From: Dehalococcoidia bacterium
GTDB lineage: Bacteria > Chloroflexota > Dehalococcoidia > Lucifugimonadales > QGNO01
NCBI GenBank assembly: GCA_965261445.1
Contig: CBDHCW010000025.1
Span: forward strand, 13,870 to 77,869
Length of the DNA stretch: 64,000 nt
Reading direction: 5' to 3'
Numbering within the stretch: the first letter of the stretch is position 1; every line of letters begins with the position of its first letter. The translations under genes were made by a program, and so were the position numbers. The notes beneath the pieces were generated by a model. That model did not search any database. It was given only the letters and a program-made list of their open reading frames with translations, and was not told the DNA's origin. Of this stretch, positions 4,788-64,000 are shown in pieces.

Positions 4788-6074
4788 TTGGAAGAAAGCT
4801 CGTCTACCGGAATCGGCATGCACAACTGGGCATTGCTTGCTGTTGTGATTGGTATGGGTATCCCCGCGGTTGTCATCAGCTGGCTGGTCATCCTTACCGG
4901 GAGGCCGGACCTCCTTCCATGGATGGGTAGCGTCGTTTTCGGGGTCGGCATAGTAGGAGCCGCCGCTTTGCTTGCCTGGGCTTCGGAAGTCGCCGAGATC
5001 GACATATCCCAGGGGCTGGCCCTGGCCATTGTTGCCCTGGTAGCTGTGCTCCCCGAATTAGCGGTGGATTTATTCCTTGCCTGGCAGGCCGGCAATGATC
5101 CATCATCCCTCTACTCTTCGTACGCCACCGCCAACATGACGGGAGGAAACAGGCTCATCGTGGGATTGGGCTGGCCCATGGTTGTTTTGCTCTACTGGTT
5201 CAAGCGCAAGCAAAACGTGTCCCTGACCACTGGCGTATCGCCGGAGATTGCCTTCCTTGTCGTCGGCGCTCTGTATGCAGTGTTCATTGTGGTGAAGGGC
5301 GAGATCTCTTTGTGGGACACGGCTGTTCTCCTTCCCCTTTTCGGCGTATACATCTGGCTCAGTGGCCGAGGCGAGCACTCCGAGCCGGACCTCATTGGCC
5401 CTTCACGAGCCATAGCATCTTTCGGGGCAACCGGACGCAGGGTAGCCGTTGTTCTCATATTCCTATATGCCATAGGAGTGATAATCTTTTCTACGGAGCT
5501 ATTTGCCGAAGGACTGATAGATACCGGCGCCCAGTTTGGAATAGATGAGTTCGTCCTCATCCAGTGGCTGGCCCCGCTTGCTTCCGAGGCGCCTGAAATG
5601 CTTATTGCCAGCTACTTTGCGCTGAGAGGGGCGCCCGGTGCGGCGTTGATCATGCTGGTGTCGGCCACGGTTAACCAGTGGACCCTCTTGCTAGGCAGTT
5701 TGCCCATTGCCTACAGCCTTGGTTTTGGAGGCGTTGCCGCACTCCCCTTGACGACCGGCGAATCGATCACTCTTCTTGGAGTCTCAGGCCACAGGCAGCA
5801 GGTGGAGCTTATTCTGACCATGGCTCAAACCGTTTTTGCTGTTGTTCTGGTGCTTCGCTTGTATGCTTCCTGGAGGGGTATGGGCCTACTGCTGGCTTTA
5901 TTCATTACCCAGCTTGTCTTCTCCGGTACCGAGCAACGGTTAGCCGTATCAGCGCTACTCCTATCTCTGGCTTTGCTCCTGTTGATTGTCGACGGACGGC
6001 GCAGAGACGGTATTAGAGATCTGGCAACTCACGTTGCCGGCGCGTTCCGCAGACGTCCCGTTCAGAGCCTATAG
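4788..6074 (+). CDS. Ca2+/cation antiporter (CaCA, sodium/calcium exchanger membrane region) family protein
   Basis: Polytopic membrane ORF with two alpha-repeat-like segments (ASEVAEIDISQGLALAIVALVAVLPELAVD and IQWLAPLASEAPEMLIA). The start could instead be the ATG at 4818. Confidence 0.6.
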   Translation: MEESSSTGIGMHNWALLAVVIGMGIPAVVISWLVILTGRPDLLPWMGSVVFGVGIVGAAALLAWASEVAEIDISQGLALAIVALVAVLPELAVDLFLAWQAGNDPSSLYSSYATANMTGGNRLIVGLGWPMVVLLYWFKRKQNVSLTTGVSPEIAFLVVGALYAVFIVVKGEISLWDTAVLLPLFGVYIWLSGRGEHSEPDLIGPSRAIASFGATGRRVAVVLIFLYAIGVIIFSTELFAEGLIDTGAQFGIDEFVLIQWLAPLASEAPEMLIASYFALRGAPGAALIMLVSATVNQWTLLLGSLPIAYSLGFGGVAALPLTTGESITLLGVSGHRQQVELILTMAQTVFAVVLVLRLYASWRGMGLLLALFITQLVFSGTEQRLAVSALLLSLALLLLIVDGRRRDGIRDLATHVAGAFRRRPVQSL

Positions 6075-6810: not shown

Positions 6811-9399
6811 TCACCCCCCAAACCACTCCGCCAGTCCCGCCTTGTTCTGCTCCAGCCAGCGTATATTCAGCCCTATCCGCTCCAGCGACTGCTGAATCGT
6901 GCGGCTTGCCGAGGGCGTGGGGTGCTCTTGGAAGAACTCCTCCACTTCTTGGCGCGCCTCAGGCGTGGTGAAACCGCCCGTGATCTGCACCAGCCGCATC
7001 ATGGCGAAGCCGCCCGCCCCGTACCGTCTGTCGAGCTCTTGCCAGTTCCTTTTCGCATAGTCCCAGGCGATCTCTCTGCCGTTCTTGGGGTTGATGGCCA
7101 CGAAGTTGACCAGCATTACACTGTCCTGCGACCGCACCTTCTCCGATAGCGTCATCTCGATGGTTTTTTCAAGCAGTTCCTGGTCTTGGAAGCTGGACAT
7201 GGCCATGAGTAGGCGTACCTTCTCTTCCTGTAAGTCCGCCTCGTCGTGGAGGCGCTGCAAGGATGTGTACGTATTGCCGTCGCCCCCGTATGCCGCCAGG
7301 TTGTACACCGCACCGCGCATGTCCGGTGACAGCGAAGACGGGTCCTCCAGGTAGCGGTGGAACCGTTGTTGCGCCTCTTCCAGGGCCTCCCTGTCGCCGA
7401 ATGCTCCCATCTGCCCCAGTACGGTGCTGCGCAGCAGGCTTCGCAGATGCCCTTCTTCCGCTTCCTTCTCCCAGCCCACTTTGTGAGCTATGTCGCTGAG
7501 CAGGCCTCTGCCGAACTCCTGGTATCGTTGGTAGTAGGGCTCTTGGGCAACGAGCGATGCGAGGCCGCGTAGATTGGCCGTGAGATCGGCCCATACTGGG
7601 TACTCGGTCTCCTGTCCATAGGCCCTGGCCAGGTCCAAGAACCGTGTCGCCGGGATCATCCCCGCCCTTGCCAGTGCGTAGGCGTCCGCCTGCAACCCCA
7701 GCCGGTCGGCGCTGGGCAGTTCCAGAGACTCCACCGCCGGTATCAGCCTGGCCAGGTCTTCCTGCTTGTACTGGGCTCTGTAGAAGCCGGTCTGTTCGGA
7801 ATTGACCTTCACCCAAAAATTGCTGATTCCGTGTGGCGGCTGGGCTTCCAGGGCAGCTTCCCTGTTGCTCATCACCATGGACACCGGCTCCGTCATGCCT
7901 TGAACGGTTGCTCTTACCGGGATCTGCCATAGTGTGAGGTCCTGGTTTGGCCCGGAGTAGAGGAAGCGTTGCTGGGTCAGCCCTACGGACACCGTATCTG
8001 CGCGGTTTACGTCCACGTTCAGGACGGGGTATCCCACCTGGTTGATCCAGCTTTCCATCATTGCCACCACCGGCTGTCCCGTTTCTTCTTGCATTGCCGA
8101 CCAGAGATCCGTACCCGTGGCGTTTTTGTAGATATGCTCTGAGATGTACCGGCGCAGCCCTTTTCTGAACTGCTCCGGGCCAAGGAACTGCTCCAGCATC
8201 CGCAGAATGGAGGCTCCTTTCTGATAGCTGATGGCGTCAAAGAGCTGGTTGATTTCAGCGGGGTCCTTCACCTCTTGCTCTATGGGGTGCGAGCTCTCCA
8301 GGCCATCCAGTCCTAACCCCGCATTCACGTCGGACGATACAAATTGCGTCCACAGGTCCCATTCCGGGTAGAGATGGTCTACCGCCTTGGTTGCCATCCA
8401 TGAAGCAAAGCTTTCGTTGAGCCATAGATCGTTCCACCAGTCCATGGTCACCAGGTCGCCGAACCACATGTGCGCCATCTCGTGAGCAACCACCTCCGCA
8501 ATGAGCTGGCGCGCCCTTGGGGAGGAGTTCTCTGCGTCGAACAGCAGGGCCACCTCCCGGTATGTGATGGCGCCCCAGTTCTCCATCGCCCCTGCCGCGA
8601 AGTCAGGTATCGCCAGCTGGTCCAGCTTCTCCAGCGGATACGGGATCCCGAAGTAGTCGTTATAGTAGGCCAGCAGCCGTTTTGCCGCCTCCAGCGCGAA
8701 ACGCCCCTGCTCCGATTTCCCCGGTGTCGTCCATATCCTCAACAGCGTCCCGCTGTCCGCCGTATCCTCTATAGATTCCAATTCGCCAACTACAAAGGCC
8801 AGCAGATAGGTGGACATCGGCGGCGTTTCGGCAAACTGCACTCGCTTTTTGTCGCTGCCTTCCGCCGACTCGCTGGCTATCGACGTATTGCACACGGCGG
8901 TGAGGTGCGACGGAATGACCAGCGTTACGTTGAAGGTGGCTTTCTTGTTGGGCTCATCCCAGCAGGGGAAGGCACGCCTTGCGTCTGTCGGCTCAAACTG
9001 TGTCGCTGCCAGGACCCGCGTTTCGCCGTTTGCCGACTGATATGTGCTGCGGTAGAAGCCGTGCAGCCTATCGTTGAGCTCTCCGCTGAAGCTCAGTTCG
9101 AGTTTGGCGCGGCCGGTCGGCAGTTCCTCTCCAAAATCGAAGGTTACCGTCTGCGCTTCTTCGTTGTAGCGTATGTCGCTTGCCTGCTTCATTCCGCCGC
9201 CGGCCGGCGTAACGGACGCCGACTGCACCTCTAAATCGGCTGCGTTCAGGGACAAAGTGGAGGTGGGCTCGGTAATTTCAACGTCTACGGTCTCATTGCC
9301 GGCAAAAGCGAATCTCTCCAGGTCGGGAGCCAGTGTGATCTCATATTTCAAGGGATGTGAATGTTGCGGCAGTATCACACGGTCTTGCGTATTTGCCAT
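6811..9399 (-). CDS. pepN: M1-family aminopeptidase N
   Basis: GAMENWG exopeptidase motif, HEMAHMWFGDLV-x18-E zinc site, and an ERAP1-like C-terminal domain. 862 aa. Confidence 0.9.
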   Translation of the reverse strand: MANTQDRVILPQHSHPLKYEITLAPDLERFAFAGNETVDVEITEPTSTLSLNAADLEVQSASVTPAGGGMKQASDIRYNEEAQTVTFDFGEELPTGRAKLELSFSGELNDRLHGFYRSTYQSANGETRVLAATQFEPTDARRAFPCWDEPNKKATFNVTLVIPSHLTAVCNTSIASESAEGSDKKRVQFAETPPMSTYLLAFVVGELESIEDTADSGTLLRIWTTPGKSEQGRFALEAAKRLLAYYNDYFGIPYPLEKLDQLAIPDFAAGAMENWGAITYREVALLFDAENSSPRARQLIAEVVAHEMAHMWFGDLVTMDWWNDLWLNESFASWMATKAVDHLYPEWDLWTQFVSSDVNAGLGLDGLESSHPIEQEVKDPAEINQLFDAISYQKGASILRMLEQFLGPEQFRKGLRRYISEHIYKNATGTDLWSAMQEETGQPVVAMMESWINQVGYPVLNVDVNRADTVSVGLTQQRFLYSGPNQDLTLWQIPVRATVQGMTEPVSMVMSNREAALEAQPPHGISNFWVKVNSEQTGFYRAQYKQEDLARLIPAVESLELPSADRLGLQADAYALARAGMIPATRFLDLARAYGQETEYPVWADLTANLRGLASLVAQEPYYQRYQEFGRGLLSDIAHKVGWEKEAEEGHLRSLLRSTVLGQMGAFGDREALEEAQQRFHRYLEDPSSLSPDMRGAVYNLAAYGGDGNTYTSLQRLHDEADLQEEKVRLLMAMSSFQDQELLEKTIEMTLSEKVRSQDSVMLVNFVAINPKNGREIAWDYAKRNWQELDRRYGAGGFAMMRLVQITGGFTTPEARQEVEEFFQEHPTPSASRTIQQSLERIGLNIRWLEQNKAGLAEWFGG

Positions 9400-9676
9400 G
9401 GGGTTCTACCTCGTCTCGCTAAGTCGTTTAGGGCAGGGGTTAAGGTAACACAATGCCATAGTTGAGGACAGACGTACGGGCATCCCCGCAGGCGTGGGAC
9501 GCCCTGCTCACCCCGTACCGTCCTCCCACCGTCATTCCCGTGCTCGACACGGGAATCCATCCCCCCTTCGTCATTGCGAGCCTCTGAGCACAGCGAAGAA
9601 TCCCTTGACAGTGTTCCATGGCGGTGTTATGCCTATGCCACTCCCGGCGTACCGGAGTATTGAAGGAGGTGGCAAG

Positions 9677-13101: not shown

Positions 13102-13118
13102 TCAGGTGGACCCCATCA

Positions 13119-14054
13119 TCAGGACAGCGGTGAGGCTAAAATAAGAGAGTCTACCGCTGGGGTGTCTCGTAAACCTTCATCCGATGGTAAGGCTTGTGGA
13201 TGTTCCAGTAAACACCTTTGTGGGCTCACTGCTTGGAACACCTGACCCGGTGACCGATAGCCCAGGGCTTGATGGGGCCGCTCTTGGTTGTAGAAGGCCA
13301 GATAAGCCCCAATCCCCTTTCTGGCCTCAGTCCCATTTTGGTATGCCTTCAGGTACACCTCCTCGTACTTGATGCTGCGCCACAGCCGTTCCACGAAGAC
13401 GTTGTCCATGCACCGGCCCCTGCCGTCCATGCTCACTTGAACGCCTTGCGCCAGCAGCATGCTGGTGAAGGCCTCGCTGGTGAACTGGCTGCCCTGGTCG
13501 GTGTTGAAGATCTGTGGCCGACCCTTGCTCAAGGCCTCTTCCAGAGCCGCAACACAGAAGTCTACCTCCAGGGTGTTGGACAGCCGCCAGGCCAGCACGT
13601 AGCGGCTGTGCCAGTCCATGATGGCCACCAAGTAGAGGAAACCCCGAGCCATGGGTATGTAGGTGATGTCGGTGGCCCACACCTGGTTGACCCGGTTGAT
13701 CTCCAGCCCCCTGAGCAAGTACGGATAGACCTTATGCCCTGGGTTTGGCTTGCTGGTGTTGGGACGCCGGTAGATGGCCTCCAGGCCTATCAGCTGCATC
13801 AGCCGGCGGACCCGCTTGCGGTTGACCTGGTGTCCGTGATTTCTGAGCCAGGCAGTCATCCTTCTGGATCCGTAGAAAGGTGTCTTCAGGTACTGTTGGT
13901 CTATGAGGGCCATCAACTCCAAGTCCTCGGCGCCGGCCTCGGTTGGCAGGTAGTACAACGAGGAGCGGCTGATACCCAGCAAGGCGCACTGGCGCACCAG
14001 AGACAGCTTCGGTTCTTCTCGGTCAATCATGGCCCGGCGTTGGGACCGGCTCAC
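13119..14054 (-). CDS. IS3-family transposase OrfB (DDE integrase core)
   Basis: WATDITYI...[10 protein letters not shown]...[16 protein letters not shown] pattern. It lies in the -1 frame relative to orfA. Confidence 0.9.
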
Positions 14055-14335
14055 AACCCGAAGCTCCGTGACAAAAAATCCCGTTCCACCTTGAGCTGCC
14101 CAATCTGTTGGTAGAGCTGGGCAGTGAGGACCTCTTGGTCCTTCTCCTGGCGTCCAGCACCATTTTCAAAGAGGTGCGGCGCCCCCTGAATCAAGGCCTT
14201 CTTCCAGGCATGGATCTGGCTCGGGTGGACTTCAAACCGGCTGGCCAGCTCTGCAATGGTGTGCTCCCCCTGGAGCGCGGCCAAAGCCACTTTGGCCTTG
14301 AAGACTGGGCTGTGCTTCTTACGTGTTTGCTTCAT
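14051..14335 (-). CDS. IS3-family transposase OrfA (HTH)
   Basis: 94 aa, [39 protein letters not shown]. Ends in a leucine-zipper-like segment. Confidence 0.9.
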
Positions 14336-14414
14336 GTCCTGCTCCTTGTTTCCGTCCTATTTTAGGAGCGGGACTCTCTCTTAGCCACCTGTCCGAATTT
14401 TGGGGTCCACCTCA

Positions 14415-14759
14415 CTGGATGCGCCATTTGTGGTTATAGAAGATAGCCCCATCCTGCCGAAGCACCCGCATCATGGACTTTAGGCATCTTCGCTGCCACG
14501 CAACATATTCCTCATGGGGCATAGCGTCGTCATGGTCGGTATATCCTTCTAGCAGGGCGGCTTGAGGCCATTTGCCTCCGCTTCCGTTCTTTAAGCCGTT
14601 GCCGGTGCTGTTCTTGATGTTGTAAGGGGGGCTGGTAACTATCAGGTCTATGGAGCCAACCGGCATCTTGTCCATTAGCTCCACACAATCGCCCATGTGA
14701 ACCTTGCCAAGCCAAGCTTCCATCATGTGTCTTGGCGTTCGAGTTGCTGATTCAGCCAT
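14415..14759 (-). pseudogene. DNA methyltransferase, N-terminal fragment (catalytic SPPY motif IV)
   Basis: DLIVTSPPYN motif. The ORF runs into the IS end and is stopped by the terminal TGA of the IS. The likely start is the ATG at 14759. Confidence 0.85.
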
Positions 14760-16816: not shown

Positions 16817-17145
16817 TTGCTTCCTGGTATACGGCTTTCGGGTATCATAAAGGCTAACGGACGTGGATTACAGCTTTCGCGGGTATCCAGGGGGGCTCTG
16901 TTTCCGTTCACCCTGAGCACAGTCGAAGGGAGTGAGCGGAAACCCGACAGCGCCTTGCCCGCTCATAGCCTGCCCCGTCATCCTAAGCGTGGCGCCACCG
17001 TCTGACACCCCCTCCTTCTCACACCCCTCTGCAGACAGTACCCTATCCTCATGGACTTGCACAAAACCACTCAGCAGTACCTATAACGTCGGCGTGGAGC
17101 GCCCATGATAGAAACGTTGCGAAATCACGCCATCAACCGTCGAAT

Positions 17146-17228
17146 CTCGGATTTGTTTCCCATATTTCCCAAAAAGTGGTTCGTTTTTAGCTTTGAAATT
17201 GACATAACGTTGGAAACAATTCTCCTCC
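17146..17228 (+). repeat. ~83-nt dispersed intergenic module, copy 1 (second copy 50962..51046)
   Basis: About 90% identical to 50962..51046 by manual alignment. Contains TTGACA at 17199-17204. Lies 115 nt upstream of a + strand start codon. Confidence 0.7.
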
Positions 17229-17342
17229 TCACCCTTTCCATGACTCCATATTCGGTATCCCCGGTTGGCCTAGACACCGGCAACCGCTACGATGTAAAAC
17301 AAGGAACGGGATCATCTGTAGCCACCTTGAAAGGAGCACGAC

Positions 17343-21279: not shown

Positions 21280-21324
21280 TCTTGCGTTAAGAAACATGGG
21301 CGACACTCTCATGTAGGATGTTCT
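21280..21324 (+). repeat. 45-nt IS-end-like motif (reverse-complement copy at 60261..60305)
   Basis: TCTTGCGTTAAGAAACATGGGCGACACTCTCATGTAGGATGTTCT matches the reverse complement of 60261..60305 with about 5 mismatches. Confidence 0.7.
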
Positions 21325-24300: not shown

Positions 24301-25239
24301 ATGATAAGTATTGCCAAAGAATTCTATGTGGCGGAATTGAAAGTGCCATCGTATTGGTATCTGGGCAGGGAGATAAACGGTGAAATTCCCGAACCTGCTG
24401 GCTTTGAGATAAACAGAGGATATTGGGTACTCCGCCCCCAAAAGGAACAACCTGAGTTTGATTTGATTGTTGAGTTCGGCTCTGCAACTCTCAAAGATGC
24501 TGAAGACCACGCTTTGAAGGTGGGCAGGATACTTAGTTCCATAGCTTCGGCACATGGAGGGTATCCAAGTGGGGCACCGAAACTCCAACGTGTTGCCTCC
24601 ATAGATCGTGACGGATACCTGAAGTCTCAACACCAATACTGGTACGGTGACAACTCACAAAAGCTCTGGCCCTATGATGGACACGCGAAGCAAGCGTTTC
24701 TAAGAAATCTCGAAATCATCTCTTTGATGGATCATAAAGAGAGATACAAACTACTTGCAGCAATTCACTGGTACGGAATATCCATAAGCACCGATGATCC
24801 AACAGTCAGTTACGTTGCTGCATGGACAGGACTTGAGGTCATTGGTGTAGTTATAAACAGCATATTTCATCCCAACGGACATAAAGCTCCCTGCCAGATT
24901 TGCAAAAATAAAGCAGGCAAAGACAGAGATCGTAAAATGGCCGGTATTGAACACGCATTCGGTTATCTCGCAAGGGAGTCTTTGCCTGGGTCTCCTTCGG
25001 AAGGAAATAGGAAGCTAATTGCAGACGATCTAATCAAGGGTTTCGCGGCTGAAGAAGCTGGCAAGTTGCGTAATTCTGTTGTTCATGGTCTGGAAGAATT
25101 TGAAGTGCTCCTAGAGAAATGTTCGGAGGTCAGACGGCACCTGATTCACATTCTCAACGTCTCAATTCTAACCGCAATGGCCTCATCAGCTTCCGCAAGG
25201 GTAACTGAGGTGGACCCCAAAATTCGGACAGGTGGCTAA
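24301..25239 (+). CDS. HEPN-like (Rx4H motif) protein whose 3' end is replaced by IS3 copy 2
   Basis: The KLRNSVVHG segment fits the Rx4H HEPN motif within a predicted helical C-terminal half. The last 11 codons and the stop come from the IS end. The region has low GC. Confidence 0.5.
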   Translation: MISIAKEFYVAELKVPSYWYLGREINGEIPEPAGFEINRGYWVLRPQKEQPEFDLIVEFGSATLKDAEDHALKVGRILSSIASAHGGYPSGAPKLQRVASIDRDGYLKSQHQYWYGDNSQKLWPYDGHAKQAFLRNLEIISLMDHKERYKLLAAIHWYGISISTDDPTVSYVAAWTGLEVIGVVINSIFHPNGHKAPCQICKNKAGKDRDRKMAGIEHAFGYLARESLPGSPSEGNRKLIADDLIKGFAAEEAGKLRNSVVHGLEEFEVLLEKCSEVRRHLIHILNVSILTAMASSASARVTEVDPKIRTGG

Positions 25240-25284
25240 GAGAGAGTCCCGCTCCTAAAATAGGACGGAAACAAGGAGCAGGAC

Positions 25285-25569
25285 ATGAAGCAAACACGTA
25301 AGAAGCACAGCCCAGTCTTCAAGGCCAAAGTGGCTTTGGCCGCGCTCCAGGGGGAGCACACCATTGCAGAGCTGGCCAGCCGGTTTGAAGTCCACCCGAG
25401 CCAGATCCATGCCTGGAAGAAGGCCTTGATTCAGGGGGCGCCGCACCTCTTTGAAAATGGTGCTGGACGCCAGGAGAAGGACCAAGAGGTCCTCACTGCC
25501 CAGCTCTACCAACAGATTGGGCAGCTCAAGGTGGAACGGGATTTTTTGTCACGGAGCTTCGGGTTGTGA
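25285..25569 (+). CDS. IS3-family transposase OrfA
   Basis: Identical in translation to the copy 1 OrfA. Confidence 0.9.
25542..25548 (+). promoter_or_regulatory. Candidate -1 programmed ribosomal frameshift heptamer T TTT TTG (orfA to orfB)
   Basis: X XXY YYZ pattern in the orfA zero frame (gaT TTT TTG), 19 nt before the orfA stop. The -1 frame is open into orfB. The equivalent site in copy 1 is at 14072-14078. Confidence 0.5.
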
Positions 25570-26501
25570 GCCGGTCCCAACGCCGGGCCATGATTGACCG
25601 AGAAGAACCGAAGCTGTCTCTGGTGCGCCAGTGCGCCTTGCTGGGTATCAGCCGCTCCTCGTTGTACTACCTGCCAACCGAGGCCGGCGCCGAGGACTTG
25701 GAGTTGATGGCCCGCATAGATCAACAGTACCTGAAGACACCTTTCTACGGCTCCAGAAGGATGACTGCCTGGCTCAGAAATCACGGACACCAGGTCAACC
25801 GCAAGCGGGTCCGCCGGCTGATGCAGCTGATAGGCCTGGAGGCCATCTACCGGCGTCCCAACACCAGCAAGCCAAACCCAGGGCATAAGGTCTATCCGTA
25901 CTTGCTCAGGGGGCTGGAGATCAACCGGGTCAACCAGGTGTGGGCCACCGACATCACCTACATACCCATGGCTCGGGGTTTCCTCTACTTGGTGGCCATC
26001 ATGGACTGGCACAGCCGCTACGTGCTGGCTTGGCGGCTGTCCAACACCCTGGAGGTAGACTTCTGTGTTGCGGCTCTGGAAGAGGCCCTGAGCAAGGGTC
26101 GGCCACAGATCTTCAACACCGACCAGGGCAGCCAGTTCACCAGCGAGGCCTTCACCAGCATGCTGCTGGCGCAAGGCGTTCAAGTGAGCATGGACGGCAG
26201 GGGCCGGTGTATGGACAACGTCTTCGTGGAACGGCTGTGGCGCAGCATCAAGTACGAGGAGGTGTACCTGAAGGCATACCAAAATGGGACTGAGGCCAGA
26301 AAGGGGATTGGGGCTTATCTGGCCTTCTACAACCAAGAGCGGCCCCATCAAGCCCTGGGCTATCGGTCACCGGGTCAGGTGTTCCAAGCAGTGAGCCCAC
26401 AAAGGTGTTTACTGGAACATCCACGAGCCTTACCATCGGATGAAGGTTTACGAGACACCCCAGCGGTAGACTCTCTTATTTTAGCCTCACCGCTGTCCTG
26501 A
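25566..26501 (+). CDS. IS3-family transposase OrfB (DDE)
   Basis: 311 aa, with 2 amino-acid differences from copy 1. Confidence 0.9.
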
Positions 26502-26582
26502 TGATGGGGTCCACCTGAAACGGGGCATTACGAATTCCATCCAGATGGACGCGTCTCCCTCAAGTTCAGCCGATATCTCCGA

Positions 26583-59315: not shown

Positions 59316-59352
59316 CTGATGTGTCCTATATTTAGGTAGAGGGGGTGTTGAT

Positions 59353-59967
59353 ATGAGCAAAGGAATTGGTGGGCATTTGAGGAGATCCTTTGTCAGGGGA
59401 CTTTTTGTCCTGATACCTGTTGTGCTTACTTATATGGTACTGAAGCTGCTCTTTGACATAGTAGACGGAGTATTGCAGCCTTTGGTGGAAATAGGATTTG
59501 GCAGCAGGATCCCCGGGCTTGGCATCCTCTTTCTTGTGGTACTGGTCTATTTAGTGGGTCTTCTGCTTGCCAATGTTCTGGGCCGCCAAATGGTTGATCT
59601 GTTGAAGAGAGGACTGCTTAGCATTCCTGTTGTTGGCAGCGTCTACTCCACGGCGGGCAAGCTCATAGACTCTTTCTCTGGCAGCAGCGATATGGGTTTC
59701 AAGCGCGTTGTGGTCATGGAGCACCCAAGAAAAGGGGTGTGGACCGTGGGTTTCCTCACCAGTTTCATAGAGGAGGTTCCCAGCAAACGAATGGCTATAG
59801 TTTACATACCTACCGCTCCTATGCCCAACTCGGGCTGGGTGGCCATCCTTCCCGTAGAAGAGGTCTACGATACCGACTTATCCATAGATACGGCGATGAA
59901 TCTGGTGCTGTCCGGCGGCATTACGGCGCCATCACAGTACAAGCGGATGGCCCTAGCGGCGGACTGA
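59353..59967 (+). CDS. DUF502 domain-containing membrane protein
   Basis: LRRSFVRGLFVLIPVVLTYMVLKLLF start and the conserved PNSGW region. Confidence 0.8.
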   Translation: MSKGIGGHLRRSFVRGLFVLIPVVLTYMVLKLLFDIVDGVLQPLVEIGFGSRIPGLGILFLVVLVYLVGLLLANVLGRQMVDLLKRGLLSIPVVGSVYSTAGKLIDSFSGSSDMGFKRVVVMEHPRKGVWTVGFLTSFIEEVPSKRMAIVYIPTAPMPNSGWVAILPVEEVYDTDLSIDTAMNLVLSGGITAPSQYKRMALAAD

Positions 59968-60130
59968 TTTACACGACCCACAGATGCTTGATAGGTTGAT
60001 AAAACGCTCACTATGTTCAACCCCGTAGGAGGCAATAGATGACTCTGAGCCCCGGAGACAAAGCACCGCATTTCTCGTTGCCGGCTTCCACTGGTGAGAC
60101 CATCTCGCTGCCGGATGCGGTGGGGAGGAA
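59892..60130 (+). repeat. 239-bp direct repeat, copy A (DUF502 3' end + intergenic + first 27-28 codons of bcp)
   Basis: Aligns without gaps to 63102..63340 at a constant offset of 3210 bp, with 8 mismatches. Confidence 0.9.
60039..60120 (+). pseudogene. bcp 5' fragment (first ~27 codons), duplicated copy
   Basis: MTLSPGDKAPHFSLPASTGETISLPDA is identical to the start of the intact bcp at 63249. It then diverges at the junction. Confidence 0.85.
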
Positions 60131-60131
60131 T

Positions 60132-60224
60132 GATCCCGTAGTAGCGGCAGACATCACTCACCGGCACCCCTTGCTCATGCCATGCAACCCGTTGCTTGAT
60201 AGCGTACCAACTGCTAGTCTCCAC
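60132..60224 (-). pseudogene. Transposase N-terminal HTH stub (31 codons)
   Basis: A GTG start preceded by a GAGGAGG RBS. (M)ETSSWYAIKQRVAWHEQGVPVSDVCRYYGI resembles the N-terminal HTH of IS481/IS3-type transposases. It is cut off at the duplication junction. Confidence 0.5.
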
Positions 60225-60260
60225 TTGGGTGACCTCCTCTCATCGATTTGTTCCTTCTAA

Positions 60261-60305
60261 AGAACATCCTACATGAGAGTGTCACCCAAGTTTCATAACA
60301 TAAGA
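60261..60305 (-). repeat. 45-nt IS-end-like motif upstream of the transposase stub (copy of 21280..21324)
   Basis: AGAACATCCTACATGAGAGTGTCACCCAAGTTTCATAACATAAGA is the reverse complement of the 21280..21324 motif, with about 5 mismatches. Confidence 0.7.
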
Positions 60306-60396
60306 AAACTGACCCACTACCTAAATATAGACAGCAGAACCTTTACTATGCTAGCATTGTCCAGGTTTTAAGACGGTTGACAACTGAGGTGTTAAG

Positions 60397-62949
60397 ATGC
60401 TCAATGCGAAGCGACTGGCGGTGCCCACGATGGGACTACTTCTTCTGTTGGTTGGCCTGATTGGAAATGCCACTGCGGCCAATCCCCAAAGCTCCGCAAG
60501 TCCCCAAGCCGTCACACCTACGGAGGTGACGCTGAGTTCCGAGGAGTCGTGGAACTGCATTCTTAACCAGCATGAGATTACAGCCAACCTGGCTGCTGGC
60601 GTGATCGCCTCGGCGAACGGACGCATCGAATTCTTCCTCAACCGATTCCCGGATGCGGTTGGTGACATCGTCGAGGTAACGGGCAACACCAGCCCGACCA
60701 AGATGACCAACTCCTTGGCAGTTGTGAACACCAACTCAGACGGACAGGCCACCGCAACTCTGGTGGCCACACGGCCGGGCGATACCGACGTAACCGCCTT
60801 CGCACCCGGCATCCAGGATAATGGCACCCACAAGGTCTTTGGAGTTGTGCACTGGGTAGACGGGTGTCCCCAGTTCCCATCCGATGCAGAGAACCGCTTC
60901 AACACGCCTCACCCCATGAACGTAACCATAACCAACGTCTCGGATGGCAGCCCTGTCCAGGGCACGTCCGTCCGCTGGACCATAGTCGATGACGAGCCGA
61001 ACGCCCGGTTCGCAAACGCGGCGGAAGACAGCAACGTCATCACAACCACAACCGACTCCTCCGGACAGGCTTCCGTCACTCTTGAGCAGATAGACGCGCT
61101 CTTGGGTGACAACAGCGTGTTCATTGAAGTGCTGGAGCCGGGCGGCAAGACCATGTTCTCGCAAAGCATGCGGAAGCGGTGGACTCAGGCAATTCTGGAT
61201 GTAGAGGCAACCGGCTCCGCTCAGATCGGCCTGCTTGCCAACGCAACATACACTGTCTCGGTGACCAATACCGGTAACTTCGATGCAACGAGCACTGAGC
61301 TTACCGCCACGCTGCCTGCGGGTATGACCTACGTGTCCGCCACGGACGGAGGCACAGCGAGCGACTCTGTCGTAACCTGGAACCTTGGCACTATCGCAAT
61401 CGGCGGCTCCAGGTCGGTGGGACTTACAGCCCAGGGCACCCGCATAGGCGAACAGACAATCACGTACCAAGCGAGGTCTTCCGAGGGTCTCGGCGACGAC
61501 GACTCCACCGTAACGGAAGTCATAAGAGGCGGTCTGGAAGTCACCAAGACCGGACCGACCCAGGCTGACCTCAATGACGACGTCACCTACACCATTGAGG
61601 TGACCGGTACTGGCACTGGTGCAAGCACGGGTATCCAGTTGGTGGACACCATACCGGCGGGCATGAGCTTCGTCTCATCCAACCCGGAGGGCACTCAGAC
61701 CGACAGCCAGCTGTCGATTGATCTGGGTACGTTGAACCCGACCGAGAGAAGGTCGATCGCAGTGGTCCTGCGGGCGGACCAGACTGGCAACTGGACCAAC
61801 CAAGTGGCTGTGTCCTCCACCGAAGGCGCCACGGCCAGCGCCGAGGCCACGACCACGGTTGTCCGGCCAGCGCTGACCATCACCAAGACCGGGCCGGAAA
61901 CGGCTCTGATAAATGAGAGCTTTGCCTACATCGTAACGGTCTCCAACGACGGCACCGGTGTCGCCGGCAACACAACCGTAACCGACACCCTGCCTGAGGG
62001 TATGGAGCACGTCGGCAGCCTCCCGGCCGGTACTGTCTCAGAAGACGGCAGCACGGTGACCTGGAGCGTCGGCAGTCTGAACCCCGGCAGCTCGTCCATC
62101 ATCACGCTGACGGTCAGGGGGACAACGGCAGGCGCCAAGGTGAACACTGCGTCCGCCACCGCCGACAGGGTTGCCACGGAGCCTGAGAGTCAGGCAACCA
62201 CCACGATCCTAGTACCCGCCATAACGGTCGAAAAGATCGGTCGCACGGCGCTCTTCGTGGGCAACCAGGCAACCTACACCCTGACCGCCACCAACACCGG
62301 TGAGGCGACGTTGACCAGCGTGACAATCACCGACACGTTCGCAACCGGCATGTCCTACGTGGCGTCCAGCCCCGAGGGCACCATATCCGTGGGTGGCAAC
62401 ACCGTAACCTGGCAGGTTGGAGATCTGGCAATCGGTGGAGCGGCCACGGTCACCCTGACGTTGCAAGGCGACGAGGTGGGAACGATGATCAACACCGCCA
62501 CCACCACCGCCGCCGAGGGCGTCAGCGACGACGACGTGCTGAATGTCGCGATACTGGCTGCGGCTGGCGCCACAATCCAAATCACCGACTCCTTCGACCC
62601 GGTCAGGGAAGGTGAGCAGGTTGCCTTCACGGTGATCGTGAGCAACCAGGGTAGGTCGCCGATGACAGATGTGAGCGTGGCCGTCCCGGTGAAAGCTGAG
62701 TACTTCACCATCAACTCCACGTCGGACAGCACTAAAGCGACGATTGACGCGGCAAACTCGACGGTGACTTACAACCACGGCGAGGCGCTGGCCATGGGCG
62801 ACAGCTTCACGTTCTCCATCACGGCAACGGCAAACGAACTGCCCGAGGGCCAAATCAGACAAGACGCGGTCACCACCGCTACGCTGACCTACGCTGAGTT
62901 CTCGCAGCCGGTCAGCACCGACGAAGGCACAACGGTGATCGAGCAGTAG
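60397..62949 (+). CDS. Secreted DUF11-repeat (conserved repeat domain) surface protein with Ig-like N-terminal modules
   Basis: Signal peptide MLNAKRLAVPTMGLLLLLVGLIGNATA. At least five repeats follow the pattern (L/I)xVxKTGP...YTxxVxNxG...TDxLPxGMxYV. No obvious sortase or lipobox anchor. Confidence 0.8.
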   Translation: MLNAKRLAVPTMGLLLLLVGLIGNATAANPQSSASPQAVTPTEVTLSSEESWNCILNQHEITANLAAGVIASANGRIEFFLNRFPDAVGDIVEVTGNTSPTKMTNSLAVVNTNSDGQATATLVATRPGDTDVTAFAPGIQDNGTHKVFGVVHWVDGCPQFPSDAENRFNTPHPMNVTITNVSDGSPVQGTSVRWTIVDDEPNARFANAAEDSNVITTTTDSSGQASVTLEQIDALLGDNSVFIEVLEPGGKTMFSQSMRKRWTQAILDVEATGSAQIGLLANATYTVSVTNTGNFDATSTELTATLPAGMTYVSATDGGTASDSVVTWNLGTIAIGGSRSVGLTAQGTRIGEQTITYQARSSEGLGDDDSTVTEVIRGGLEVTKTGPTQADLNDDVTYTIEVTGTGTGASTGIQLVDTIPAGMSFVSSNPEGTQTDSQLSIDLGTLNPTERRSIAVVLRADQTGNWTNQVAVSSTEGATASAEATTTVVRPALTITKTGPETALINESFAYIVTVSNDGTGVAGNTTVTDTLPEGMEHVGSLPAGTVSEDGSTVTWSVGSLNPGSSSIITLTVRGTTAGAKVNTASATADRVATEPESQATTTILVPAITVEKIGRTALFVGNQATYTLTATNTGEATLTSVTITDTFATGMSYVASSPEGTISVGGNTVTWQVGDLAIGGAATVTLTLQGDEVGTMINTATTTAAEGVSDDDVLNVAILAAAGATIQITDSFDPVREGEQVAFTVIVSNQGRSPMTDVSVAVPVKAEYFTINSTSDSTKATIDAANSTVTYNHGEALAMGDSFTFSITATANELPEGQIRQDAVTTATLTYAEFSQPVSTDEGTTVIEQ

Positions 62950-62978
62950 CCTCTGCCAGTGCCGATTGGATCATCAAG

Positions 62979-63015
62979 CAGCCGGCAGGTGATAAACCTG
63001 CCGGCTGTTGCTTTG
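62979..63015 (+). terminator. Rho-independent terminator after the DUF11 gene
   Basis: 11-bp perfect stem cagccggcagg / cctgccggctg, loop tgataaa, followed by ttgctttg. Confidence 0.75.
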
Positions 63016-63101
63016 TAAGTGACTCACATGCCAACGCGAGGACGCCTGAGCTGAGAGCAACATCCCCTGGCTTCACCCGCGCTGCCGCGCAGGGTCATGG
63101 T

Positions 63102-63340
63102 GGCGATGAGCCTGGTGCTGTCCGGCGGCATTACGGCTCCATCGCAGTACAAGCGGATGGCCCTAGCGGCAGACTGATTTACACGACCCACAGATGCTTG
63201 ATAGGTTGATAAAACGTTCACTATGTTCAACCCCGTAGGAGGCAATAGATGACTCTGAGCCCCGGAGACAAAGCACCGCATTTCTCGTTGCCGGCTTCCA
63301 CTGGTGAGACCATCTCGCTGCCGGATGCGGCGGGCAGGAA
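63102..63340 (+). repeat. 239-bp direct repeat, copy B (DUF502 3' fragment + intergenic + start of the intact bcp)
   Basis: See 59892..60130. Confidence 0.9.
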
Positions 63341-63710
63341 GGTCGTACTTTACTTCTATCCCAAAGACGATACCCCCGGCTGCGTGAAGGAGGCCTGCAG
63401 CTTCCGCGACGCCAACGCTGAGCTGAGAGCGGCGGGCGTGGAGGTGCTGGGCGTCAGCGCCGACAGCCTGAAATCGCACCGGCGGTTCGTTGAGAAGTAC
63501 AAGCTGCCCTTTCCTCTTCTGTCGGACGAGGAGAAGACGGTGTCCACGGCCTACGGCGCCTGGGGCGAGAAGACGGCCTGGGGCAAGACGACGGTGGGGA
63601 TGAGGCGTATGACGTTCCTCATAGACGAGGAGGGGATGATCCAGAAGGTCTGGCCCAAGGTGAGACCGGATGGCCACGCGGAAGAGGTGCTGAAAGCCGT
63701 GAAGGCCTGA
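63249..63710 (+). CDS. bcp: Peroxiredoxin Bcp (thioredoxin-dependent thiol peroxidase)
   Basis: VVLYFYPKDDTPGCVKEACSFRD peroxidatic-Cys motif. 153 aa. AGGAGG RBS. Confidence 0.9.
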   Translation: MTLSPGDKAPHFSLPASTGETISLPDAAGRKVVLYFYPKDDTPGCVKEACSFRDANAELRAAGVEVLGVSADSLKSHRRFVEKYKLPFPLLSDEEKTVSTAYGAWGEKTAWGKTTVGMRRMTFLIDEEGMIQKVWPKVRPDGHAEEVLKAVKA

Positions 63711-63727: not shown

Positions 63728-64000
63728 TCAGCTGTCAGCGCTTTGCGGCGGGGCTGGAGGGACGTCGGCGTGGAGCCAGGCCTGGAACAGGTCATCGAGG
63801 TCTTGACCGGAGACCTGTTCCGCCACCTCCACGAAGTCGGATGTTGAGGCGTTGCCTCCGGCATGGCGAGACAGGTACTGGCGGAGCGTGCGGAAGAAGG
63901 CGTCGTCGCCGATTTCCCCGCGCAGGGCGTGAAGGGTCATGGCCCCTCTGATGTAGACCGCCGCCGTGAACGGGTCTTCGGGTTGCGGCTTACCGGGCGG
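63728..64000 (-). CDS. M1-family metallopeptidase, C-terminal part (partial; continues beyond the window)
   Basis: The frame is open to the window edge: ...AAVYIRGAMTLHALRGEIGDDAFFRTLRQYLSRHAGGNASTSDFVEVAEQVSGQDLDDLFQAWL. This is the typical post-catalytic helix region of M1 peptidases. Confidence 0.7.
   Translation of the reverse strand, partial: PPGKPQPEDPFTAAVYIRGAMTLHALRGEIGDDAFFRTLRQYLSRHAGGNASTSDFVEVAEQVSGQDLDDLFQAWLHADVPPAPPQSADS

Follow-up and report, generated by a model that had tools for sequence, protein, structure and literature searches.

Results

Genes and features at the locus

The window (the 64,000-nucleotide stretch analyzed, from the Dehalococcoidia assembly G000; G002, G003 and G005 label other Dehalococcoidia genomes compared with it) holds near its right-hand end four genes, each single and intact: a DUF502 gene (A), the peroxiredoxin gene bcp (B), an M1-family peptidase gene (X) and the gene of a DUF11-repeat surface protein (D). 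Beside them remain fragments of bcp (5' end) and DUF502 (3' end), both dead, and a stub of an insertion sequence (IS). An earlier note on this DNA had proposed the same content (DUF502, bcp, DUF11 protein, and a transposase stub with its IS end), and all its gene calls hold. The features, with the junctions J1 to J3 discussed below, are as follows.

59353..59967, plus strand: DUF502 gene (A), intact ORF (Pfam PF04367, E 4.6e-25), collinear in relatives
59892..60130, plus strand: repeat copy A, with the live DUF502 3' end (76 nt), a 71-nt intergenic part that contains an RBS and a promoter-like site, and the dead codons 1-31 of bcp
59988..60017, plus strand: promoter-like site of bcp, TTGATA-18-TATGTT, first (orphaned) copy, from a consensus scan
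60039..60130, plus strand: 5' remnant of bcp, dead, 92 nt or 31 codons long, ending at J1
60130/60131: J1, where bcp nt 92 abuts bluntly on an IS481-type element
60131..60305, minus strand: IS481-family stub, comprising the left terminal repeat, a leader, an RBS and the opening 31 codons of the transposase HTH, with a GTG start at 60224
60306..60396, plus strand: native upstream region of D, from alignment with five relatives, with promoter-like site and RBS
60397..62949, plus strand: gene of the DUF11-repeat secreted protein (D), 850 aa, five DUF11 repeats (E 3.9e-62)
62977..63015, plus strand: intrinsic terminator of D, 14-bp stem (fold, -34 kcal/mol, z -4.1)
63091..63111, plus strand: J2, where a decayed mnmA remnant, represented by its 5' end AGGGTCATGGT, runs into the DUF502 3' end
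63102..63177, plus strand: dead DUF502 tail, in repeat copy B
63102..63340, plus strand: repeat copy B, with the dead DUF502 3' end, an intergenic part containing an RBS and a promoter-like site, and the start of the live bcp
63249..63710, plus strand: bcp (B), intact, 153 aa (AhpC-TSA, E 2e-42)
63728..64000, minus strand: gene X (M1-family peptidase; Peptidase_M1 match), 3' part, continuing to window-equivalent 65128
65152-65240 (window-equivalent; C25:79021-79109), outside the window: J3, 24 bp beyond the X start codon

The dead bcp fragment covers AhpC-TSA residues 5-35 only and has no catalytic Cys region, and its alignment to the bcp genes of relatives ends at 60130. The orphaned promoter-like site at 59988-60017 now faces the IS stub and D; a second, identical site is found at 63198-63227. 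The D protein consists of a signal peptide (called by inspecting MLNAKRLAVPTMGLLLLLVGLIGNATA), an Ig-like N-terminal part and five PF01345 (DUF11) stretches. Its gene is preceded by a conserved promoter-like site in the consensus scan (TAGACA-18-TAGCAT at 60328-60357) and followed by a terminator that alignment shows to be kept in relatives with compensatory changes. ORF, Pfam and fold analyses thus confirm the secreted 850-aa DUF11 protein with RBS and strong terminator described before, for which "giant" was an overstatement. No solved structure in the PDB was matched by the D sequence, no Rfam family was found in 58.5-64 kb, and exact-protein look-ups with D, bcp and DUF502 gave no match.

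A 239-bp direct repeat

Repeat search recovered one two-copy direct-repeat family, 59892-60130 and 63102-63340, of 239 nt and 97% identity; in the whole-assembly search only these two sites carry it. The copies align gap-free at an offset of 3210 bp with 8 mismatches (59900, 59901, 59928, 59934, 59961, 60007, 60121 and 60125), exactly as first reported, around an identical core of 113 nt, and in the pairwise alignment similarity breaks off abruptly at either edge. One mismatch lies in the 71-nt intergenic part and two at the extreme end of the bcp part, a slight correction to the single mismatch counted earlier for these parts. The last 76 nt of the intact DUF502 gene fall within copy A, so that, as the earlier note had it, copy A combines a true DUF502 3' end with a dead bcp start and copy B the converse.

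Polarization by six relatives assigns 3-5 derived changes to copy A and 2 to copy B, and ~3 further changes specific to G000 are common to both copies. The changes in the live coding parts are synonymous, including, by inspection, the two or three copy-A-specific changes in DUF502. Because derived changes are present in both copies, the duplication event appears to be old; together with the shared G000-specific changes, this distribution fits a genuine duplication of some age.

The same differences bear on a possible assembly artefact, in which a genuine DUF502-bcp junction would have been threaded in the contig through another molecule, or a strain variant, with the same repeat core. In favour of it, the assembly is a MAG of 33 contigs (87% complete, 2% contamination) and the repeat has its 113-nt identical core. 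However, 8 differences separate the copies, each of which has derived states, and no repeat is shared by the sequences joined at J1 and J2, so that both joins must exist in the reads; the assembly also contains no alternative contig with the uninterrupted junction. In addition, twelve 1.3-kb IS3 copies, 99.2-99.5% identical, are resolved inside contigs, which implies read lengths far above 239 nt. Because near-identical elements of this length are resolved, misassembly of the 239-bp repeat is unlikely, and an artefact of the kind described is given very little weight.

The IS481-type stub

The 175 nt at 60131-60305 are all that remains of an IS481-type element at the locus, cut blunt at J1; they correspond to the minus-strand transposase stub noticed before, which is dead. 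IS homology runs from precisely 60131 to the IS terminus at ~60305, and native D upstream sequence follows from ~60310 on. In G003, elements of 1046 bp match the stub over their nt 1-~180, and tblastn gives 34 aa at 68% identity. The full G003 copies to which the stub aligns were the ones tested for IS481 membership, and they show the features of that family: a 317-aa transposase with rve_3, rve, HTH_32 and HTH_28 matches, inverted repeats (TGTTATG...CATGGGTGACAC) and a ~16-bp target duplication. No full-length copy of the element is present in the G000 assembly, only remnants. An IS insertion with target duplication would show a 2-15 bp duplication and two intact ends, whereas the locus shows a 239-bp repeat and one IS end truncated at nt ~175; the point made previously, that 239 bp is far beyond the length of a transposase target duplication, is upheld.

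D is a native neighbour of bcp

Comparison with nine same-genus Dehalococcoidia genomes shows an uninterrupted DUF502-bcp junction in all of them, which answers the earlier suggestion to look for it and is the opposite of a structure shared by all relatives. In six of the nine the order is DUF502-bcp-M1 peptidase-DUF11 gene (A-B-X-D), each gene in the same orientation as here, and D lies 0.2-2.9 kb downstream of bcp in seven of the nine. Because the A-B-X-D order is found in six genus relatives, D is a native neighbour. Orthologues in relatives encode 846-850 aa at 80-88% aa identity (dN/dS 0.5-0.6), nucleotide identity is 86-91%, and the ranking of relatives by identity is the same as for the flanking genes. 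With GC values that are also similar (D 0.61, bcp 0.63, X 0.62) and D near bcp in most of the genus, the locus does not have the characters of a horizontal island. The reading of a 3.2-kb insertion of new DNA, or of capture of an adhesin, is contradicted by this vertical inheritance. JGI metagenome contigs yielded no relatives in a scan with the D protein, and the conserved junction pattern was also unmatched there.

These comparisons weigh most heavily against foreign DNA carried in by an IS, that is, an IS-mediated or composite-transposon insertion of an adhesin gene. An IS end does adjoin D, but it is single and truncated and is accompanied by no short target duplication, and D is orthologous and syntenic with the genus copy. 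D is single in the assembly, where neither a second copy nor a paralogue adjoining the IS was found (the check proposed in the earlier note), nor any complete copy of the IS. Foreign origin by way of the IS is contradicted by synteny and has a probability close to nil.

In G002 a 125-nt X fragment (aa 52-94, E 3e-11) directly follows D. Because G002 independently has this fragment right after D, a reshuffle of this type has occurred twice in the genus, in G000 and in G002. A 13-nt match in G002 between the bcp-D spacer and the post-D fragment was considered as a sign of two peptidase remnants, and is too short to serve as proof.

Three junctions

J2 consists of 11 nt specific to the mnmA remnant followed by 10 nt, GGCGATGAGC, common to the remnant and DUF502 codons ~181-183. 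The exact 21-mer also occurs in G005 (L021, position 7327), ~240 nt after D, and the 11-mer has only 3 occurrences in the 1.89-Mb genome; the true mnmA of G000, on contig C5, differs in sequence from J2. G005 is the closest relative carrying the remnant, which there follows D, and is the one relative to provide this evidence, the others having deleted that stretch. Of the sequence from the D terminator region to the remnant, 98 nt present in G005 are missing in G000. J2 joins the distal to the proximal end of the ancestral segment, head to tail and at a short microhomology, and therefore has the defining geometry of a tandem-duplication join.

J1 differs in character, as the junction alignments reveal no microhomology, and two substitutions lie within 9 nt of it. 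At J3, the arrangement of relatives, with X after bcp, is kept until 24 bp beyond the X start codon, where synteny jumps to a block with gamma-glutamyltranspeptidase and MaoC-like genes that lies 0.1-1.5 Mb away in relatives. An 88-nt filler at J3 has no match in the genus, the IS or D. Because X is joined here to a distant block, J3 is not a simple loss.

Discussion

A probable history of duplication and loss

The locus is a native surface-protein gene moved two positions along the chromosome, and not a captured foreign gene. The structure is probably the scar left by a local tandem duplication in which each duplicated gene later lost one of its copies, so that A-B-X-D became A-D-B-X. An IS481-type element had first inserted in this lineage ~90 bp upstream of D, beside the D promoter, where its terminus is still seen. 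To judge from J2, an illegitimate exchange may then have occurred between two sites sharing the 10-nt string, one in the mnmA remnant just downstream of D and the other 76 nt before the end of DUF502, with a ~6.4-kb tandem duplication (A-B-X-IS-D-/'A-B-X-IS-D, where the slash marks the join) as the presumed full intermediate. J1 points to a later, blunt deletion that took bcp nt 93 through IS nt ~176 out of the first copy, which would have left the dead bcp start and the 175-nt IS stub ahead of D. Finally, the second copy would have lost IS-D and all beyond, from the breakpoint seen 24 bp upstream of X, where the unrelated chromosomal block is now attached. The tandem duplication envisaged in the earlier note thus stands, as the junctions indicate, while the insertion or replacement it placed afterwards does not, a deletion having followed instead.

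The repeat is the sole part of the duplicated segment that remains in two copies, and it probably persists because DUF502 depends on copy A for its end, and bcp on copy B for its promoter, RBS and start. The history is likely to be a little more complex than three clean steps, because J1 is without microhomology and has two substitutions nearby, and because 98 nt are missing relative to G005. The best explanation requires three events.

Two other routes to the same product were weighed. In one-step replicative template switching (FoSTeS/MMBIR-like), which needs no full tandem intermediate, a nascent strand copying A-B would have left its template at bcp nt 92, resumed ~2.9 kb ahead inside the IS, copied IS'-D-mnmA' and returned at the 10-nt microhomology in DUF502, with the downstream D lost later at J3. 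Microhomology and nearby substitutions are marks reported for error-prone template-switch repair, and both occur here, the former at J2 and the latter within 9 nt of J1. However, J1 offers no priming microhomology and a separate J3 event is still required. This route is considered unlikely, if the least so of the alternatives, and sequence alone cannot separate it from duplication followed by deletion.

The second, which corresponds to the recombination-mediated capture suggested in the earlier note, is Campbell-type capture, by homologous recombination, of a 3.2-kb circle carrying IS'-D-mnmA' and the 239-bp DUF502-bcp junction. A single crossover of such a circle over 239 bp of homology yields exactly the observed geometry, with direct repeats of the homology region flanking the inserted DNA, and the 113-nt identical core would be a usable substrate. 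Against this, the circle itself needs both illegitimate joins (J1 and J2) and hence one extra event, all its parts derive from within 6 kb of the target and are native, and the locus has no replicon, integrase function or att site; the route is accordingly rated improbable. Two further candidates were rejected: inversions, since none of A, B, X and D has changed orientation and an inversion gives rise to no repeat, and homology-facilitated illegitimate recombination of foreign DNA, since both non-homologous joins involve native neighbouring sequence.

Relation to known systems

Duplication followed by loss corresponds closely to tandem duplication-random loss (TDRL), a model for changes in gene order that was established on animal mitochondrial genomes (metazoan mitogenomes, e.g., PMC3283314). 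As there, tandem duplication of a segment is followed by loss of one copy of every gene, and the order is altered without inversion, with pseudogenes or fragments as scars. Here each duplicated gene is kept in exactly one copy, fragments of the lost copies remain, and A-B-X-D to A-D-B-X is exactly a TDRL permutation. Unlike those cases, the present one lies on a bacterial chromosome with its join points preserved at nucleotide resolution, and one of the losses falls together with a larger rearrangement instead of being a simple deletion.

Bacteria also undergo tandem duplications that arise at microhomologies independently of RecA and are then remodelled by deletions, a subject of duplication-amplification work in Salmonella and E. 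coli; microhomology-mediated tandem duplication is treated in, e.g., PMC13167724. Such duplications resemble the present one in being joined head to tail where both sites have a short string in common (here of 10 nt), and in later deletions that shorten the repeat unit. The G003 elements with TGT-type terminal repeats, single-ORF rve/HTH elements of ~1046 bp whose left end and first 31 codons the stub matches, liken it to IS481 insertion sequences; here, however, the 175 nt are a bystander cut by deletion and not the maker of the 239-bp repeat. Laboratory duplications are unstable and usually lost by recombination, whereas the present duplication is fixed, with copies ~3% diverged and each surviving part needed by a different gene.

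Significance

It is conceivable, though distinctly improbable, that the repeats are kept as a recombination switch while the orphaned promoter couples D to bcp, or that the locus is a TDRL hotspot. As a switch, the repeats would allow RecA-mediated pop-out, with exact restoration of DUF502-bcp and loss of the fast-evolving D, which would give D-minus variants in the population, and the orphaned bcp promoter copy would newly tie D expression to peroxiredoxin regulation. As a hotspot of duplication-loss reshuffling in Dehalococcoidia, with independent events in G000 and G002, the locus would establish TDRL as a way in which bacterial gene order evolves repeatedly.

The locus is a clean but ordinary genome scar that reveals no new biological system. 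It offers a natural example of bacterial gene-order change without inversion or mobile-element transposition in which both join points can be read to the base, and its probable mechanism, microhomology-mediated tandem duplication followed by complementary losses, is one usually invoked for mitochondrial genomes. It also illustrates how a long repeat may persist when each copy completes the end of a different essential gene, and for annotators it means that repeat-flanked segments of this kind should not be taken for captured or mobile DNA.

Direct repeat and gene content of the locus

Repeat search and pairwise alignment bear out the observation, made in the earlier note, of a gap-free 239-nt direct repeat (copy A, 59892-60130; copy B, 63102-63340) whose copies are offset by 3210 nt and differ at 8 positions. 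The window corresponds to C25:13870-77869; in the 1.89-Mb source assembly (G000, a MAG of 33 contigs, 87% complete) this sequence occurs at two sites only, both in the window. The gene content described in that note also matches the ORF and domain calls at the locus.

Features of the window
59353-59967, DUF502 gene
60039-60130, dead bcp start
60131 to ~60305, minus strand, transposase stub
60397-62949, DUF11 protein gene (850 aa, five DUF11 repeats)
62977-63015, strong terminator
63102-63177, dead DUF502 tail
63249-63710, live bcp
13102-14415 and 25206-26518, 1.31-kb IS3-family element (94-aa OrfA, 311-aa OrfB)

Origin of the DUF11 gene

An uninterrupted DUF502–bcp junction, which the earlier note had proposed to look for, is present once per genome in all nine same-genus relatives (G001-G009), 4 of which are single-contig; the genus consists of uncultured Dehalococcoidia. 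The order DUF502, bcp, M1-family peptidase gene (minus strand), DUF11 gene is found in six of the nine (G001, G003, G006, G007, G008 and G009); G002 has DUF502, bcp, DUF11, the DUF11 gene of G005 sits on a separate contig, and within this nine-genome comparison G004 carries no DUF11 gene. The G000 gene has 86–91% DNA identity to its orthologues, with the relatives ranking as they do for flanking genes; it is fast-evolving (dN/dS 0.5–0.6) and intact in every genome carrying it (846–850 aa), and from about 60310 the window retains the gene's own upstream sequence, in which a promoter-like site is conserved. Because the gene is syntenic in relatives, follows the identity ranking of its flanks and retains its native upstream region, the 3.2-kb segment is displaced native DNA and no acquisition. 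Of the explanations offered previously, duplication stands, on the geometry of the joins, and capture or insertion of the DUF11 gene falls, as the gene is native in relatives.

The right and left joins

Homology to the region downstream of DUF11 in relatives extends to about 63090. The following 21 nt, AGGGTCATGGTGGCGATGAGC (63091-63111, the right join), match G005 exactly about 240 nt past its DUF11 gene, where they code for VMVAMS, the beginning of a frameshifted mnmA remnant. In support of this reading, the start stretch is deleted in the other relatives, the remnant differs in sequence from the functional G000 mnmA (contig C5, near 72.1 kb), and a remnant-specific 11-mer has only three occurrences in the genome. 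The last 10 nt of the 21-mer, GGCGATGAGC, are also ancestral DUF502 sequence at the start of the repeat, and the mismatches at 59900-59901 fall within this microhomology. Since these 10 nt are common to the remnant and DUF502, the right join ties the mnmA remnant, at the distal end of the ancestral segment, to the DUF502 3' end, which is proximal in it; a tandem-duplication join has this geometry. In relatives the gene after DUF11 is a decayed, frameshifted mnmA-like remnant (L021, G005:C1 7300-7830; L015, G003 ~8900-9500), and such remnants carry lineage-specific deletions.

At the left join (60130|60131), bcp nt 92 directly adjoins IS nt ~175 with zero shared bases, and two substitutions specific to copy A lie 5 and 9 nt from it. 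This join would be a blunt illegitimate deletion in the first copy that removed the rest of bcp, the peptidase gene and most of the IS. The stub is homologous to 1046-bp elements that G003 carries in multiple copies, from exactly 60131 up to the element terminus near 60305. The element behind the stub is of IS481 type, because the full-length G003 element encodes a single 317-aa transposase (domains rve, rve_3, HTH_32 and HTH_28), is bounded by terminal inverted repeats and is flanked by a target duplication of ~16 bp. What is left in the window is the terminal repeat, leader and GTG start at 60224 with 31 codons; the insertion site, about 90 bp upstream of DUF11, is occupied in the G000 lineage only, and there is no full copy in the G000 assembly.

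The terminal ~45 nt of this element persist as solo remnants in several other genomes of the same order and in G000 (window 60261-60305 and 21280-21324, C8:66625-66671, C2:18433-18541), and ~120-nt left-end remnants occur in G002, G006 and G008. In G003 the GGT gene is preceded by a ~1083-bp IS distinct from the IS481-type element (L032, G003:C1 251-1331); of this IS, G000 has 4 full-length copies (C14, one; C32, two; C18, one; 90–96% identity) and 2 further partial matches on C23. The sequence CTATATTTAGGTAG upstream of the DUF502 RBS (59326-59339) recurs, as its exact reverse complement, at 60317-60330, a site lying between the IS end and the DUF11 promoter; the match extends to about 18 nt, and both sites deviate from the relatives' sequence at these positions. 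The pair could reflect a small patch templated during the rearrangement, an operator common to both sites, or coincidence.

Soundness of the assembly

Internal evidence argues against an assembly artefact, because each of the two joins connects unrelated sequences, the repeat copies are distinct in sequence, no contig of the G000 assembly has an alternative junction arrangement, and the IS3-family element is resolved in 12 copies, every one inside contigs. Such resolution is plausible only with reads much longer than the 239-nt repeat, and the near-identity of the 12 copies (99.2–99.5%) inside contigs indicates recent IS expansion and an assembly of long-read quality. Exact-protein look-ups of the DUF11, bcp and DUF502 products and JGI metagenome contigs yielded no independent assembly.

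The third breakpoint

The peptidase gene follows the live bcp, an arrangement shared with the relatives that extends to 24 bp past the peptidase start codon (window-equivalent 65152, beyond the window end). There follows an 88-nt AT-rich filler (65152-65240; G000:C25:79021-79109) with no match in the genus, the IS or DUF11, and from 65240 a gamma-glutamyltranspeptidase/MaoC block 97.6% identical to G004. In relatives that block lies 0.1–1.5 Mb from the DUF502 locus, and in G008 and G001 it adjoins the orthologue of window 47.9-49.3 kb. A 13.5-kb block begins at tRNA-Asn (left edge, window ~49.3-51.65 kb) and ends with the peptidase gene; the genes that flank it are adjacent in G008 and 2.5 kb apart in G001. 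The 51.65–65.15-kb block therefore has a position specific to G000 and appears translocated. The breakpoint is where a second DUF11 copy would have been, and may be either a deletion or a translocation endpoint.

Model, recurrence and age

The order DUF502–bcp–peptidase–DUF11 probably became DUF502–DUF11–bcp–peptidase by duplication then loss, with one survivor per gene. The IS would have inserted upstream of DUF11; a ~6.4-kb tandem duplication would have followed via microhomology, from the DUF502 3' end to the mnmA remnant 5' end; deletion in the first copy would have taken the rest of bcp, the peptidase gene and most of the IS (left join), and the second copy would have lost the stretch from IS to DUF11 (third breakpoint). 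A one-step template-switch event, which is less likely, would give an identical product, and sequence alone does not separate the two. Duplication studies in bacteria describe microhomology joins and remodelling by deletion. The G000 locus shows both. Microhomology-mediated tandem duplication in bacteria is described in PMC13167724. The change of gene order at the G000 locus is a permutation of the tandem duplication-random loss type, which is known from animal mitochondria (PMC3283314).

A comparable event is seen in G002, where a 125-nt peptidase-gene fragment (aa 52-94, tblastn E 3e-11; 43 codons, ancestral orientation) directly follows the DUF11 terminator region (L018, G002:C1 6596-6706) and no peptidase gene precedes DUF11; G002 appears to have undergone its own reshuffle of the duplication/loss type. 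The G002 bcp–DUF11 spacer has a 13-nt match to the fragment, a length too small to establish two peptidase remnants. Because G004 and G005 show further, differing rearrangements besides that of G002, the locus is plastic. After bcp in G004 and G005, where the peptidase and DUF11 genes are missing, lies a ~500-bp repeated element (L017, G004 ~5300-5960) with partial copies on at least 6 G000 contigs (e.g. C33:12260-12758, window 17002-17249); it may be MITE-like and mark another breakpoint.

With six relatives to set the polarity, three changes are clearly derived in copy A (five by simple majority count) and two in copy B, those within the live DUF502 end being synonymous, and ~3 G000-specific changes are common to both copies. 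Because changes are both private and shared, the duplication is old, dating roughly to halfway along the G000 terminal branch. The repeat is probably retained because each copy serves another gene: copy A completes DUF502, and copy B supplies bcp with its promoter-like site, RBS and start. The duplication has been stable despite its 239-bp direct repeats, and the structure is a clean genome scar of a known type.
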